Part shown: positions 2,812 to 48,314 of the stretch, piece after piece
How the letters are laid out: every line of letters starts with the position of its first letter
How positions within the stretch are numbered: position 1 is the first letter of the stretch
Assembly: GCA_036261135.1 (NCBI GenBank)
Contig: DATALJ010000205.1
Span: forward strand, 760-64,759
Direction: 5' to 3'
DNA: 64,000 bases
DNA from: Bacteroidales bacterium
GTDB taxonomy: Bacteria > Bacteroidota > Bacteroidia > Bacteroidales > JAAUTT01
Made by a program: the position numbers and the translations under genes
The notes under the pieces: model-generated
Databases searched by the model: none
What the model was told of the DNA's origin: nothing
Seen by the model: the letters and a program-made list of their open reading frames with translations, nothing else

Positions 2812-3522
2812 ATGGCAACCTACAAACGTATTTTACTAAAACTTAGCGGCGAAGCCTTAATGGCAGATAAACCCACAGGTATCGATACCGGCCGCCTTAT
2901 GGAATATGCTGAACAGATAAAAGAAGCATCGGCACTTGGCGTAAAAATTGGCATTGTAATAGGTGGTGGCAATATTTTCCGCGGCCTTTCGGGTGTTAAC
3001 AAAGGATTCGACCGTATTAAAGGCGATTACATGGGTATGCTGGCAACCGTAATCAACGGGTTAGCTATTCAATCAGCATTAGAAAGCATTGGCGTAAAAG
3101 CGCGTATGTTAACCGCAGTTGCTATGGAACCTGTAGGCGAACGCTACAGCAAATGGCGCATCGAAGAAGCTTTTGCTAACAACGAAGTAGTAATCTTCAC
3201 ATTTGGCACGGGAAACCCATTCTTTACAACCGATACTGCTTCATCGTTGCGTGCTGTGGAAATGCAGGCCGATGTACTGCTTAAAGGAACCCGCGTGGAT
3301 GGCGTGTATACCGCCGATCCCGAAAAGGACCCGAAAGCCACAAAGTTCGACGAAATTACTTTCGACGAAGCCTATTCGCGCGGTTTGAATGTAATGGACC
3401 TTACCTCTTTCACCATGTGCAAAGAAAACAAGCTGCCAATCATTGTTTTCGATATGAATACCAAAGGAAACCTGAAACGGTTGCTTTCGGGCGAAAAGAT
3501 CGGCACGCTGGTAAAATTATAA
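2812..3522 (+). CDS. pyrH: UMP kinase
   Basis: MATYKRILLKLSGEAL..., GIVIGGGNIFRG and TADPEKDPKATKF are UMP kinase (amino-acid kinase fold) signatures. The upstream 21 codons of ORF 2749-3522 run into the repeat region, so I use the ATG at 2812. Confidence 0.95.
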   Translation: MATYKRILLKLSGEALMADKPTGIDTGRLMEYAEQIKEASALGVKIGIVIGGGNIFRGLSGVNKGFDRIKGDYMGMLATVINGLAIQSALESIGVKARMLTAVAMEPVGERYSKWRIEEAFANNEVVIFTFGTGNPFFTTDTASSLRAVEMQADVLLKGTRVDGVYTADPEKDPKATKFDEITFDEAYSRGLNVMDLTSFTMCKENKLPIIVFDMNTKGNLKRLLSGEKIGTLVKL

Positions 3523-3538
3523 TTCAAGCTAAAACTCG

Positions 3539-3838
3539 TTGCAATTTTGCCGCCCTGGTTTCCAGGCAACAAATTGTAACCCTACAAAACCTCCCCCAGG
3601 TTTCCAGGGAACATATTTGCAGCCTGCAAAACCGTCCCCGGAATTCCGGGCGACACTTTGCAGGGTTACAATTTGATGCCCGGAGTTTCAGTCGGCATTT
3701 TGCAGGGTTGCAAAGTGTCGCCTGAAATGTCAGGCATCGTTTTGCAGGGTTACAAAGTGTCGCCCGGAATGTCAGACACCGTTTTGCAACCTTACAAAGT
3801 GCTGCCTGGAATTTTTGACAGGTAATTGCAGTTTAAAG
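3539..3838. repeat. Tandem array of 7 full plus 1 truncated ~42-bp units, most able to form two short stem-loops
   Basis: Unit starts are at 3539, 3574, 3617, 3658, 3700, 3742, 3784 and 3826. Full-unit lengths are 35, 43, 41, 42, 42, 42 and 42. Units begin TTGCA/TTGTA...CAA and are followed by a GC-rich segment that is palindromic in most units, e.g. CCCGGAATTCCGGG and GCCTGAAATGTCAGGC. Confidence 0.85.
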
Positions 3839-3922
3839 ATCATATTACCCGGAACCATTTTATTATATTTCCGAACCATTATATTGCCTTTATAAACGTT
3901 TGCCTGAACTTGCGACTTACGC

Positions 3923-3954
3923 TTTGGACGAAACACTAAAATATAATATATTTG
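3923..3954 (+). promoter_or_regulatory. Candidate Bacteroidetes-type promoter for frr
   Basis: TTTG at 3923-3926 and TATATTTG (TAnnTTTG) at 3947-3954, 20 nt apart. The -7 box ends 30 nt upstream of the frr ATG. This matches the -33 TTTG / -7 TAnnTTTG consensus known for Bacteroides primary-sigma promoters. Confidence 0.45.
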
Positions 3955-3984: not shown

Positions 3985-4548
3985 ATGGAAGAAGAAGTTC
4001 AATTATATCTCGACGATGCGAAGGATCAAATGGAAAAAGCCCTTACGCACTTAAACAACGAAATGATTAAGCTGAGGGCCGGAAAAGCAAACCCCAATAT
4101 GCTCGATGGCATCATGGTTGATTATTATGGCGCAAGCACACCACTCAGCCAGGTGGCTAACATCAATACGCCCGATGCCAAATCCATTGTTATTCAACCT
4201 TGGGAAAAGAAGATCATTGGCGAGATTGAAAAGGCTATTCTTGCAGCAAATATTGGTATTACCCCCATGAATAATGGCGATATAGTTCGCTTAAACTTAC
4301 CTCCGCTTACCGAGGAACGTCGTAAACAACTGGTGAAATCGGTAAATCACGAAGGCGAAAATGCAAAAGTAAGTGTCCGCACTGCCCGCCGCGAATGCAT
4401 CGAAGAGCTCAAAAAAATGCAGAAGAACGGGTTACCCGAAGATGCACAAAAAACAGCCGAAGAAAAGGTTGAAAAGCTTACCGAATCGTTCTACAAAAAG
4501 ATAGAAGAAATATTGGCCAAGAAAGAACAGGAAATAATGACTGTTTAA
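3985..4548 (+). CDS. frr: Ribosome recycling factor
   Basis: 187 aa with KLRAGKANPNMLDGIMVDYYGASTPLSQVANI, LPPLTEERRKQLVK and VRTARRE, all classic RRF motifs. Confidence 0.97.
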   Translation: MEEEVQLYLDDAKDQMEKALTHLNNEMIKLRAGKANPNMLDGIMVDYYGASTPLSQVANINTPDAKSIVIQPWEKKIIGEIEKAILAANIGITPMNNGDIVRLNLPPLTEERRKQLVKSVNHEGENAKVSVRTARRECIEELKKMQKNGLPEDAQKTAEEKVEKLTESFYKKIEEILAKKEQEIMTV

Positions 4549-4567: not shown

Positions 4568-4595
4568 AAAAACCCCGTTTACACGGGGTTTTTTG
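4568..4595. terminator. Bidirectional rho-independent terminator between frr and higA
   Basis: AAAAA-CCCCGT (4573-4578) TTAC ACGGGG (4583-4588)-TTTTTT. The A-run and T-run flanks allow it to act on both strands between the convergent genes. Confidence 0.8.
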
Positions 4596-4600
4596 TTCTA

Positions 4601-4906
4601 TCAGGCAGCGTAATTCTCCGCCTTCTTAATCTTGCTCAATTCAGCTTGCTTATTTCTCAAAGCCTCCTCCAAATCAAAATCGTCCTGCAGACCTAACCAA
4701 AACTTGGGAGAATTCCCAAAATACAAACTTAATCTCAGAGCTGTATCGGCTGTAATACTGCGGTCTCCTTTAAGAATAGACGAAGTCCTTGTTTGAGGAA
4801 TCCCAATATCTTTCGATAATTTATAGGCTGAAATATTCATTGGCTTAAGAAATTCTTCTAAAAGAATCTCTCCCGGATGCACATTTGCTAAAGTTTCCAT
4901 AGTCAT
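4601..4906 (-). CDS. higA: HigA/VapI-type XRE-family HTH antitoxin-like protein
   Basis: 101 aa: HPGEILLEEFLKPMNISAYKLSKDIGIPQTRTSSILKGDRSITADTALRLSLYFGNSPKFWLGLQDDFDLE is the HigA (addiction-module antidote) signature. Confidence 0.85.
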   Translation of the reverse strand: MTMETLANVHPGEILLEEFLKPMNISAYKLSKDIGIPQTRTSSILKGDRSITADTALRLSLYFGNSPKFWLGLQDDFDLEEALRNKQAELSKIKKAENYAA

Positions 4907-13323: not shown

Positions 13324-15456
13324 TTACCTTTTTATTTTACATTGTCCGCTTAAAAGAATATCCCTGGAAGATGAACCCACCGAAATGGTAAAATTGCCGG
13401 GTTCCACAATCCACTGATGCGACTTCACATCCCAAAATGCGAAATCGTTCTTATAAAGTGTAAGCTGTACTTTGGTCGATTTCCCCGCTTCCAGTGTCAA
13501 CTTTTTAAAGGCTTTCAGCTCCTTCTCAGGGCGAAGAACCGAAGATTCTTCATCGCGAACATAAACCTGCGCAACCGTTGAACCCGAAACCTTTCCGGTA
13601 TTTTTTATTTCAAACTCAACAGTAACCGAAAGATCGGATGAAGGTTTAGAAACCTGTAAATTTTTGTATTCAAACCCGGTGTACGAAAGCCCAAATCCGA
13701 ACGGGAACAAAGGTTCAATCTTTTTTGCTTCGTACCAACGATAGCCAACAAATACACCTTCCTTATATTCGCAATTAATAAAGGGATTGGCCATATTACC
13801 ATCCTCGTTCCAGCCTTTATAGAGCTTTCGGCCTTCGGGTATGTATCCAAAACCCGGTGAATCTTCAAATTTCTTTTCTATAGAAATGGGCAGTTTACCC
13901 GACGGATTAGTTTTCCCTGATAATATTTCTGCAAGTGCTACATTTCCATTCTGGCCTACATACCAGGAATAAATGATTCCGGGAACCTTTGATGCCCAAC
14001 CGGACATTTGTATTCCGCCGCCAGCATTAACTATAACAATGGTACGGGGATTTTTGGAAACGATGTTATTTACTGTCTTGTCAATTTCGGGTTGTTCAAA
14101 CGGCTTGTCCCAGCCCTCGCTATCCAGCGTTCCAACACTTAAAAGTACTACTGCGGCTTCTGCAATCTGCTTATCGGTAGGTTCGCTCACGTATTCAATG
14201 CGGTCTCCAAACTCGTCCTTAAATGCATCAAGCATGGTTACATTATTATAACCCAAAACCTCAGCAGAACCAAGGCCACGGGCAAGTTCTTTAACGAAAT
14301 CGCCGGTCAACAGGATTTTACCGGTTTGTTTTGAAAGCGGAAGAATGTTTCCTTCGTTCTTTAATAAAACAATGGCTTCGCGGGCGGTTTGCAGGGCTAC
14401 CTTTTCGTGTTCGGGCAAATTGGCCAGTAACGATAAATCCTTTACCGGCCGGTCGTATAATCCCATAGCAATGGATGCGCGCAGAATGCTTTTTGCCATG
14501 CGATTGATATCTTCTTCGGAAACTTTGCTTTCCTGAACAAGCTTCATTGCGTTCTTCTTGATATTGGCATCTTTAATAGGTTCATCTGGCTTCGCCCAGC
14601 TCCGGGGGTCTCCTGGCATTTCGAGGTCCTGACCCGATTTGATAACTTTCTGCGCATCCCAAACCGACCACCAATCAGTCATTACCAGCCATTTAAAACC
14701 TAATTGTTTCCGCAGCAGATTGTTTATCACATAATCGCTTTGTCCGGTCCATTCGCCGTTCACCTGGTTGTAGGATGTCATTACAGCCATAGCACCAGCG
14801 TCAATCCCTGCCTTAAAAGCAGGAAGGTATATTTCGTGTAAGGTACGCTCATCCACAATAACATTAGTGGTACGGCGGTAATAATCTGTATTGTTGCACA
14901 AAAAATGTTTCAGTGTAGCCATGGTTCCTGTGCTTTGCAAGCCCACCACATAGTTCTCAATCATCCGTGCAGCCAGGTAAGGGTCTTCGCCGAAGTATTC
15001 AAAATTACGACCATTCTGAGAGATCCGGTATATATTCATTCCCGGGCCGAGAAGCACTGCTACATCGCTTGCACGGCATTCTTCGCCGATGCATCTGGCA
15101 TATTCCTTTGCCAAATCGGGGTTCCATGTTGCAGTTAAGGCTATGGGGCAAGGAAAAGCAGTAGATTTCTCCATAAGATTACTCAGTTCTTTGCGAATAT
15201 GAACACCTTGTGTGGCATCGGAGAGATAAAGCTGAGGTATATTGTACTTTTCAAAACCTTTTATGAAGAACATATTGTGTCCACCAATGAGCAGGATTTT
15301 ATCCTCAAGCGACATCTGCTGAAGTATGGCTGCAGCTCTTTCGTCGGCCTTTTCAAAACTTACAGGGGGCACAAATGGCTTAATATGCTGACTTTTCATA
15401 ACCGGACAGTTTACAAAACAAGATATAAGAATAAGGGCAAAGCAAATTCGTTTCAT
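13324..15456 (-). CDS. Glycoside hydrolase family 3 (beta-glucosidase-like), secreted
   Basis: 710 aa with signal peptide. GH3 motifs are present: SDATQGV, KHFLCNN, GFKWLVMTDWW (nucleophile Asp region), plus a C-terminal fibronectin-like domain (AQVYVRDE...LKAFKK). Confidence 0.92.
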   Translation of the reverse strand: MKRICFALILISCFVNCPVMKSQHIKPFVPPVSFEKADERAAAILQQMSLEDKILLIGGHNMFFIKGFEKYNIPQLYLSDATQGVHIRKELSNLMEKSTAFPCPIALTATWNPDLAKEYARCIGEECRASDVAVLLGPGMNIYRISQNGRNFEYFGEDPYLAARMIENYVVGLQSTGTMATLKHFLCNNTDYYRRTTNVIVDERTLHEIYLPAFKAGIDAGAMAVMTSYNQVNGEWTGQSDYVINNLLRKQLGFKWLVMTDWWSVWDAQKVIKSGQDLEMPGDPRSWAKPDEPIKDANIKKNAMKLVQESKVSEEDINRMAKSILRASIAMGLYDRPVKDLSLLANLPEHEKVALQTAREAIVLLKNEGNILPLSKQTGKILLTGDFVKELARGLGSAEVLGYNNVTMLDAFKDEFGDRIEYVSEPTDKQIAEAAVVLLSVGTLDSEGWDKPFEQPEIDKTVNNIVSKNPRTIVIVNAGGGIQMSGWASKVPGIIYSWYVGQNGNVALAEILSGKTNPSGKLPISIEKKFEDSPGFGYIPEGRKLYKGWNEDGNMANPFINCEYKEGVFVGYRWYEAKKIEPLFPFGFGLSYTGFEYKNLQVSKPSSDLSVTVEFEIKNTGKVSGSTVAQVYVRDEESSVLRPEKELKAFKKLTLEAGKSTKVQLTLYKNDFAFWDVKSHQWIVEPGNFTISVGSSSRDILLSGQCKIKR

Positions 15457-34971: not shown

Positions 34972-35227
34972 CCGTATTCTCTCCCCTGGCTGAATTTATT
35001 CAAAGTTAGCAATGGAATACAAATAAACAAATGGCTGAAACTTTTAGATAGCTTATTAAAAACGGTGACTCAAGGAAGTTTAGCGAACCTCATACATAAT
35101 GCAAACATACCGGGAAAAAAGCAGCGCAGCTTTTACCAAAAACCTAATGTAGTTTTATCTAAAACCTAACGTGCTTTTCCTAAAAAGCAGCGCAGCTTTC
35201 GTATTCATAAAACCTTATTTGTTGTAA

Positions 35228-35291
35228 TCGGATTTTGCAAATCCGCGCAGCTGGAGGATCGCTTTCAGTGAGGGTTTCGCCGGAATGGCAC
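35228..35291. repeat. Degenerate partial copy of the REP-like element
   Basis: CGGATTTTGCAAATCCG hairpin followed by CTTTCAG...AGGGTTTCGCCGGAATGGCAC. This aligns with the internal and right-end parts of copies A and B (…TTTTCAGCTCCGCAGTTAAGGGATTCCGGCCTTCGCCGGAATGAC). Confidence 0.4.
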
Positions 35292-47945: not shown

Positions 47946-48006
47946 ATCTAAGATCATAGTCAGCAGACTACGATCAGCAGAGGGGTACCTATTGCAGTTC
48001 CACATT

Positions 48007-48113
48007 GCCATTCCGGCGAAGGCCGGAACGGTAAAACCCTCGCTGAAAGCAATCCTTGCAAAAGCATCTTTTCAGCTCCGCAGTTAAGGGATTCCGGCCT
48101 TCGCCGGAATGAC
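48007..48113. repeat. REP/MITE-like palindromic element, copy B (107 bp)
   Basis: GCCATTCCGGCGAAGGCCGGAA...GGGATTCCGGCCTTCGCCGGAATGAC. It has the same terminal hairpins and shares internal blocks (GAAAGCAAT, TGCAAA, GCTCCG.AGTT.AGGGATTCCGGCC) with copy A at 2628-2730. Confidence 0.8.
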
Positions 48114-48314
48114 AATTAATTACAAATCAGTATAATATGTGAATCTCTGACTAACCACTACAAAGCACCTGTTACATTAGTTAAATTCAACATTGCCAAT
48201 TTTAAACAGATTCCAACAAACGCTGTTTATAATACCGAACCTGCCAAATTAATTACAATAGTTCGCTGCGAATCATTTTTAATTATAAATTTATATGAAT
48301 TAATATACTACAGC

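Follow-up and report, generated by a model that had tools for sequence, protein, structure and literature searches.

What is the repetitive element that separates pyrH from frr in one uncultured Bacteroidales lineage, and does it do anything for these two genes? We examined a stretch of 64,000 nucleotides from a Bacteroidales bacterium (assembly GCA_036261135.1, contig DATALJ010000205.1, positions 760 to 64,759), referred to below as the window. Between pyrH (UMP kinase) and frr (ribosome recycling factor), it carries a tandem array of short palindromic units with a period of 42 bp (3539-3838). A preliminary description of this DNA had proposed that the units are under selection for structure rather than for sequence, and that the array acts as a terminator, insulator or RNA-stability element at a conserved housekeeping junction. 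With slightly better than even confidence, we read the array instead as a slowly decaying minisatellite, similar to clusters of repetitive extragenic palindromic (REP) elements and to bacterial interspersed mosaic elements (BIMEs), which lies in the 3ʹ region of pyrH and would be tolerated owing to a separate frr promoter downstream of it.

Structure of the array

The array is confirmed as a real feature, far above chance, because the matches to its core, a covariance model and the repeat finders all converged on it. Tandem Repeats Finder called a period of 42 at 3553-3639 (2.0 copies, 80% matches) and at 3657-3812 (3.5 copies, 79% matches; a period of 84 was also called), and a repeat finder gave 42-nt spacing all along the array, with direct families D1/D2 and inverted pairs I1-I6. 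Each unit consists of a palindrome of 13-14 nt, TTGCA-N3/4-TRCAA (core A), followed by a GC-rich quasi-palindrome (hairpin B). The core pattern TTG[CT]A.{3,4}T[GA]CAA matched six times in the 64-kb window, in comparison to about 0.6 matches in shuffled sequences; all six matches were within the array, and the pattern search found no core outside it. For the covariance model built from the seven units, the array was likewise the sole genuine match in the window; the next best match (13618-13659, 18.9 bits) falls within a 710-aa open reading frame and was rejected as chance.

When the sequence was cut at the unit starts of the preliminary description (3539, 3574, 3617, 3658, 3700, 3742, 3784 and 3826), its lengths of 35, 43, 41, 42, 42, 42 and 42 nt were exact, giving seven units and a stub of 13 nt. 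Unit 1 (3539-3573, 35 nt) is in the inverted orientation and has a degenerate core and a CCTGG/CCAGG hairpin. The core of unit 2 (3574-3616), TTGTAACCCTACAA, is the reverse complement of the GGG-type core, and its second segment is a direct repeat, CCAGG...CCAGG, which forms no hairpin. Unit 3 (3617-3657) has a perfect core, TTGCAGCCTGCAA, and the palindrome CCCGGAATTCCGGG. Units 4 (3658-3699) and 6 (3742-3783) share the core TTGCAGGGTTACAA; the second hairpin is weak in the former and has the form GTGTC...GACAC in the latter. The perfect core of unit 5 (3700-3741), TTGCAGGGTTGCAA, is accompanied by a GCCTGA/TCAGGC hairpin and then by ATCGTTTTG. Unit 7 (3784-3825) carries the core TTGCAACCTTACAA, with a loop of the inverted type, and the truncated unit 8 (3826-3838) reads TTGCAGTTTAAAG. 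The motifs quoted earlier were all found in the sequence: the palindrome TTGCAGcCTGCAA, the direct repeat of unit 2 and the stems CCTGG/CCAGG, CCCGG/CCGGG, GCCTGA/TCAGGC and GTGTC/GACAC.

Four of the seven cores contain a C·A mismatch. The stems of hairpin B are 5-6 bp long with G/C as their first pairs, and the loop is of four nucleotides in units 3, 5 and 6. In units 5 and 6, hairpin B is directly preceded by a GTGTC tag, and unit 3 shows this tag when the other strand is read; in unit 7 it is present in the orthologs only (3802/3803). The orientation of the units changes once along the array: units 1-3 are inverted relative to units 4-7, as indicated by 84% complementarity of 3560-3590 to 3739-3769, by an exact inverted 15-mer (3643-3657 of unit 3 against AGTGTCGCCCGGAAT at 3755-3769), and by sliding 36-mers, which matched at 23-26 of 36 positions in the inverted and at 19-24 of 36 in the direct comparison. 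The core loops flip as well, being GGG in units 4-6 and CCC, GCC or ACC in units 2, 3 and 7. The array termini form a 7-bp inverted pair, TGCAATT (3540) and AATTGCA (3826-3832), both being part of units.

The genes around the array have the order rpsI-rpsB-tsf-pyrH-frr on the plus strand (Pfam), with pyrH at 2812-3522 (AA_kinase) and frr at 3985-4548 (RRF). The array is extragenic and starts 17 nt past the pyrH stop codon. It was said to fill the spacer, which is an overstatement, as it takes up 300 of the 462 nt. Downstream of it, on the plus strand, we noticed a predicted promoter of the Bacteroidetes type (TTTG at 3923-3926, TATATTTG at 3947-3954). This promoter had been pointed out before, and the relatives L009, L013 and L014 have the same -7 box in front of frr. 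These motifs support the view that frr is driven by a promoter of its own, its function being predicted from sequence.

Several other identities were considered for the array. A CRISPR array was rejected, as the units abut with no spacers between them, and a sigma-54 promoter (GGCAT-N4-TTGCA) was rejected on inspection, as the spacing is wrong. A coding repeat was suggested by the period (42 nt equals 14 codons) and by several open frames. However, indels in units 1-3 break the frame, and the substitutions between orthologs are spread evenly over the frame positions (3, 6 and 6), with no codon periodicity. A protein search with the open minus-strand translation of the array, aimed at mis-called open reading frames in paralogous arrays, returned nothing.

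Distribution and copy number in relatives

To place the array among distant relatives, we scanned one genome per GTDB species, which gave 80 pyrH loci, all from Bacteroidales or Bacteroidota, with PyrH identities of 66-87%. Where frr follows pyrH (about 50 relatives), the spacer is mostly 32-144 nt long (53-144 nt in the four closest); none of these spacers holds the array, and the covariance model of the unit found nothing in 87 loci. Unrelated inserts resembling miniature inverted-repeat transposable elements (MITEs) are present in a few relatives (L013, L018 and L080). Since relatives at this distance are without the array, it is, by sequence comparison, a lineage-specific insertion or expansion and not a general feature of the pyrH-frr junction, and the role proposed for it at a conserved housekeeping junction finds no support.

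Near relatives gave a different picture. In five other metagenomes (wastewater, digester and others), they carry orthologous arrays between pyrH and frr. Absence of the array from related genomes, which the preliminary description had itself named as evidence against its proposal, was thus found at genus or family distance and not among near relatives. Contig L002 is identical to the window. In contig L001, Frr is identical and exactly unit 5 is missing; because the junction sequence is not present in the window, this loss does not result from assembly collapse. The arrays of X3 (3583-3837, 16 differences) and X4 (3601-3837, 15 differences) are covered gap-free over these intervals and keep the unit order, and X2 covers 3500-3722 and 3767-3900. 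In X5, position 3575 is joined to 3763 via 19 nt, at the shared CCCGGAAT, so that about four units fewer are present. The copy number is therefore about three units in X5, six in L001 and seven in the window, X3 and X4. The orthology of these arrays indicates that the array is older than these lineages and that its units keep their individuality, with no homogenisation.

Divergence between orthologous arrays

In the nearest relative, X2, 3.2% of pyrH positions differ from the window, nearly all of them in third codon positions (about 9% of third positions), and 1.7% of frr positions differ (about 5% of third positions), in comparison to 5-7.5% in the array. Judging from these values, the array appears to diverge at about the neutral rate in X2, close to the synonymous divergence of its neighbours, which speaks against the proposed selection on structure. 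In X3 and X4 the array diverges by 6.3%, third positions of pyrH by about 37% and third positions of frr by about 8%. For X4 these third-position values were obtained at the 3ʹ end of pyrH (3307-3522) and at the 5ʹ end of frr (3985-4199), respectively, and the contrast points to a recombination boundary located in the spacer or close to it.

The changes themselves do not follow a compensatory pattern, as no compensatory double change was seen between orthologs. A window-specific T at 3692 (unit 4), where X2, X3 and X4 have G, breaks a pair that these three retain. In unit 7, the orthologs carry the perfect TTGCAACCCTGCAA at 3792/3794 and the consensus flank AGTGTCGCC at 3802/3803, and it is the window that departs at both places; the orthologs' own departures are at 3811, 3815 and 3818.

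Past 3837, the X3 and X4 orthologs diverge sharply from the window. Between the array and the frr promoter, the window contains a direct repeat of 21 nt, CCGGAACCATTTTATTATATTT / CCGAACCATTATATTGCC (3852-3885), one copy of which is probably absent in X3 and X4. In X4, the array had seemed strongly conserved when compared with 3838-3909; this impression was therefore discarded as an artefact of ungapped alignment across this probable 21-nt indel.

Folding, termination and a possible role as an RNA element

The strongest competitor of the minisatellite reading is that selection maintains the array as a cis-acting RNA element of the pyrH 3ʹ untranslated region, working as an array of weak terminators, as an insulator or as an RNase barrier that stabilises the pyrH mRNA; we regard this as doubtful. 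Its position, directly after pyrH and upstream of the conserved frr promoter, would suit such a role, and the terminator scan agreed with the earlier remark that no strong intrinsic terminator follows pyrH. There is also a precedent in REP325 of Escherichia coli (yjdM-yjdN), which terminates transcription in part and stabilises the mRNA upstream of it (bioRxiv 10.64898/2026.03.23.713779). On the other hand, the relatives do without the array in their spacers of 32-144 nt, and the copy number varies from about three to seven among near relatives, where the orthologs, as described above, are without compensatory changes; all units are nevertheless kept in X3 and X4, at 94% identity.

The folding results were in only partial agreement with an RNA element. 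In a two-hairpin model, 77.6% of the cells pair on the plus strand and 84.2% on the minus strand, in comparison to 29-50% for slid partners and to 69.8% (plus) and 78.0% (minus) for shuffles. The potential to form hairpins is thus real; it comes from the DNA palindromes and exists on both strands. The earlier statement that most units fold as two hairpins goes too far: most units retain the pairing potential, some double changes included, but in minimum-energy folds of isolated units on the plus strand both hairpins form in units 3 and 5 only (two of seven). The whole array folds at -126.5 kcal/mol on the plus strand (z = -6.9 against shuffles), far more stably than expected by chance, but even more stably on the minus strand (-148.8 kcal/mol, z = -9.5), and the better pairing of the strand opposite to pyrH argues against a plus-strand RNA element. 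Moreover, instead of fourteen small hairpins, the fold of the whole array consists of long-range hairpins that join units of opposite orientation, which follows from units 1-3 being inverted with respect to units 4-7.

Among the seven paralogous units, six pairs have changed on both sides, a number reached in three of 500 shuffles. Such covariation is modest, and some changes break pairs. Template switching that corrects palindromes is a mutational process, and it explains the covariation among units as well as selection does; for this reason, we do not accept selection on structure rather than on sequence as shown. The Rfam scan gave no match at gathering thresholds over the whole window, and with permissive E-values nothing relevant appeared, the sub-threshold hits being chance matches to miRNA-type hairpins.

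As to termination, units 4-7 have a GC hairpin and then (N2-4)TTTTG on the plus strand, and one of them, unit 5, passed a lenient terminator scan (3720-3735, tail ATCGTTTTGC). It was the only one of the seven units to do so on this strand, and the six sites in the region were not above the shuffles (3.2 ± 2.0). In an intrinsic terminator a GC stem is followed directly by a U-tract, whereas the U-tracts of the array are short and offset from the stems; the genuine terminators in the window, after frr (4568-4593) and after tsf (2513-2533), have 6-9 T. The proposed function as a terminator is thus not borne out.

Phased palindromes, protein sites and the minus strand

A broader alternative, which we consider unlikely, is that the array belongs to an undescribed, selectively maintained family of phased palindromes in Bacteroidales, serving as a protein platform or as a structured RNA insulator. 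In the proposed layout, TTGCA-N4-TGCAA cores spaced by 21 or 42 bp would alternate with variable GC hairpins. Such a family would explain the identity of about 94% at which every unit, with its peculiarities, is kept in orthologs despite the divergence of about 37% at pyrH third positions, as well as the core-bearing arrays that we found at unrelated intergenic sites (L083-L089). The latter came from a core-pair pattern search of Joint Genome Institute (JGI) metagenome contigs, which gave four distinct tandem arrays (L083/L089, L085/L087, L084/L088 and L086), in which TTGYA-N4-TRCAA palindromes, spaced by 21, 41 or 42 bp, alternate with another small hairpin. They are located at ~1250-1560 of L084 (equal to L088), at 2030-2300 of L086 and at 4030-4290 of L083 (equal to L089, with L085 and L087 similar), in unrelated intergenic contexts, such as beside a DUF6261 gene or beside a TonB/BlaR1-like gene next to an acyltransferase gene. 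However, they share with the array only the core that the pattern required, and the whole-unit model does not recognise them. Because any minisatellite with a period of 40-44 bp (or half of that) and one core-like 15-mer would match the pattern, we did not count them as relatives of the array.

A narrower alternative takes the array as a set of sites for a dimeric protein that would recognise TTGCA-N4-TGCAA every 42 bp, that is every four helical turns, either in the manner of iterons, operators or centromeres or like the IHF linker of BIME-1; this we hold to be distinctly improbable. Of all parts of the units, the 5-4-5 palindromic core is kept best, with its stems retained and its loop variable, and the same holds for the cores of the related metagenome contigs, where the TTGCA/TGCAA stems are kept and the loops vary; the period of 42 bp would also fit. 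Phage contigs offer parallels. A BLASTN search of the array against phage and plasmid collections gave no match and the strict core pattern found none in viral contigs, while a loose palindrome pattern detected many arrays of GTTGCA-N4-TGCAAC or CTTGCA-N4-TGCAAG in viral contigs, with spacings of 21-22 or 41-43 bp. Examples resembling iterons or operators, with phased GTTGCA-N4-TGCAAC, are in L091 (7039-7140), L131 (1227-1310), L106 (744-840) and L098 (~14000-14600), and up to 12 cores are present in L098, L118, L130 and L136. These arrays illustrate that phased palindromes are a common layout of protein sites; their relatedness to our array is unsupported, since, like the metagenome arrays, they were fished by the core pattern and went unseen by the whole-unit model. 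Further points against protein sites are that no protein linked to the locus is a candidate for binding it, that the core is confined to the array within the 64 kb, and that four of the seven cores have the C·A mismatch. Finally, three of about 17 ortholog substitutions fall in cores where about six were expected, which is not significantly fewer.

That the minus strand is transcribed into a structured antisense or small RNA or a long hairpin RNA is very improbable: the greater stability of its fold, the C·A mismatches of the plus strand that become G·U pairs on it and the terminator-like unit 2 on this strand would fit, but no Bacteroidetes-type promoter on the minus strand faces the array, Rfam gave no match, no contig covers the array in the metatranscriptomes X23-X26, a G-to-A mutation bias can explain the strand asymmetry, and the ortholog change 3820 A>G is wobble-compatible on the plus strand only.

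REP dimers in the window and the origin of the array

The window contains two further palindromic elements, which had been described as REP-like at 2628-2730 and 48007-48113. Both turned out to be real REPs and fit the head-to-head dimers of the CGTC/TGTC-tagged type. The first (2626-2732), in the tsf-pyrH spacer, has the structure GTGTC-ATTCCGGC-GTAG-GCCGGAAT ... ATTCCGGC-CTGC-GCCGGAAT-GACAC; the second copy of the family is at 48005-48115, and over both copies the loops are GTAG, CTGC or CTTC and the end is GACAC/A. A fragment, a partial copy, is at 35278-35291. In CGTC REPs, the tag is CGTC, often TGTC and also CCTC, the stem of 8-9 bp opens with two A-T pairs and the loop has 4-5 nt (PMC3733652). 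They occur mostly as head-to-head dimers 20-100 bp apart, in tens to thousands of copies per genome, and their head-to-tail arrangement is negligible; the superfamily has been reported in Bacteroidetes too, and clusters in which units and flanking DNA are reiterated in tandem are also on record (PMC3733652). Both full dimers, which are REPIN-like, show all features of CGTC-1 REPs, namely the TGTC tag, the 8-bp stem ATTCCGGC with AT as its start, a loop of 4 nt and a spacer that is about 57 bp long. None of the pyrH loci of about 80 relatives contains this dimer family, which is therefore lineage-specific too.

The preliminary description had regarded the array as an amplified derivative of these elements, on the basis of a shared CGCC(C)GGAATG. 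The literal match exists, but local alignments of the array to the dimers scored 17-18 in comparison to 15.4 ± 2.3 for shuffled sequences, and 53 of 300 shuffles reached the observed score, so the similarity is not above chance. Some support for a link comes from other contigs of the same metagenomes, where units of the array type have ...CATTCCGGCGAAGGC or ...GGAATTCCGGGGAAGG as their hairpin B, with REP-stem sequence in it. These contigs run into unrelated flanks and have 0.6-1.9 times the depth of the pyrH-frr contig in five metagenomes (absolute depth 3-12), which suggests that paralogous arrays may be present elsewhere in the same genome. An origin of the array from the REP family is thus plausible, though statistically unproven.

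Under the minisatellite reading, a module made of a TGTC-tagged GC-rich quasi-palindrome and a 14-bp AT-flanked palindromic linker, 42 bp in all, would have arisen between pyrH and frr in a single uncultured lineage of Bacteroidales and been amplified in tandem. Slippage or unequal recombination between units may then have let the array grow and shrink, and intrastrand template switching may have flipped or corrected some of its palindromes. The array would persist as a nearly neutral, slowly decaying insert, any activity being a by-product of its position in the 3ʹ untranslated region of pyrH. If it is transcribed from pyrH, its stable hairpins could, by analogy with REP325, slow down 3ʹ exonucleases and reduce part of the read-through into frr.

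Several observations weigh against this reading. No second array is present in the 64 kb, and dispersal within the genome is deduced from metagenome contigs alone. The units are mostly head-to-tail, unlike the alternating units of classical BIMEs and the head-to-head CGTC REPs, their stems are of 5-6 and not 8-9 bp, and the similarity to the REP dimers is not statistically significant. The soil metatranscriptomes X23-X26 contain exact rpsB and tsf contigs of the organism, with no coverage of the pyrH 3ʹ end, the array or frr. Finally, the array is far better kept in X3 and X4 than the third positions of pyrH, which could point to constraint; the pattern would be explained equally well if a recombination boundary lay close to the end of pyrH.

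Two further observations concern the surroundings. In an intergenic stretch with a terminator-like hairpin after it, the window holds a tandem repeat with a period of 22 bp (35116-35199, about 3.8 copies of a AAAAACCAACGCAGCTTTTACT-like unit); the repeat lies upstream of the REP fragment (35278-35291), at a distance of about 80 nt. Downstream of frr, on the minus strand, there is a gene for an HTH_3 protein, a HigA-like antitoxin (4601-4906). In L001 (1400-1992), a HigB-like toxin gene lies beside the antitoxin, but collinearity with the window stops at about 4920, past which the window has a LytTR response regulator and a histidine kinase instead. As the window is without a collinear HigB-like toxin gene beyond this point, its antitoxin looks orphaned.

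The array reveals no new conserved regulatory element of the pyrH-frr junction. Its interest lies in the host, since repeats of the REP/BIME type have been studied thoroughly in Proteobacteria and hardly been described from Bacteroidota. The locus provides a concrete example from the latter, a head-to-tail array of two-palindrome units in an uncultured Bacteroidales lineage of soil and wastewater, which adjoins canonical CGTC-type REP dimers and has natural alleles of about three, six and seven units. It may be useful as a marker for strain typing, and possibly as a natural test of whether REP clusters modulate adjacent housekeeping genes outside enterobacteria.

Comparison with known systems

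The centromere sopC of plasmid F consists of 43-bp units with one short inverted repeat each. The array resembles such iteron- or centromere-like arrays in its tandem units of about 42-43 bp with a short palindrome and in its helical phasing. However, it is chromosomal and located between housekeeping genes, its palindromes are degenerate, relatives are without it, and no partner protein gene is found at the array.

BOX elements of Streptococcus pneumoniae contain boxB, of 45 bp, in tandem. They are, like the array, intergenic repeats near housekeeping genes, with an internal minisatellite whose units are gained or lost between strains. BrickBuilt of Porphyromonas gingivalis, also a Bacteroidales host (PMC4596501), shares the same features, being intergenic and near housekeeping genes, with an internal minisatellite of which whole units are gained or lost between strains. 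Its unit, however, is of 23 nt and non-palindromic (AGAYCATARTATCCTCTCRTRTG), in comparison to 42 bp and palindromic in the array, and it has a distinct leader and tail, terminal inverted repeats and 19 dispersed copies. In the array, we saw no leader, tail or target-site duplication of the MITE type represented by BrickBuilt and BOX, and only the 7-bp inverted terminus.

With the CGTC/TGTC-tagged REP superfamily (PMC3733652), the array has in common the (G)TGTC tag of hairpin B and the 4-nt loop in units 3, 5 and 6. It differs in its stems, which at 5-6 bp with a G/C start are not those of the superfamily, and in the head-to-tail arrangement of its units.

The closest likeness is to the REP clusters and BIMEs of E. 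coli, and the comparison made in the preliminary description was apt. Both consist of extragenic, short, GC-rich imperfect palindromes with a conserved linker between them, both lie between genes of the same orientation, in the 3ʹ region of one of them (as in REP325), both contain units in the two orientations, and in both presence and copy number vary by strain; partial termination and protection of the upstream mRNA would be expected by analogy (PMC2817692). The array has the regular spacing of a BIME (42 bp) and a conserved linker (TTGCA-N4-TRCAA) but lacks the alternating orientation: its units are oriented in blocks, three inverted and then four to five direct, with one switch and no strict alternation. 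In addition, its linker is itself palindromic, its stems are shorter (5-6 bp) and its host belongs to the Bacteroidales. The array would work like a REP cluster, yet it is no canonical member of any described family.

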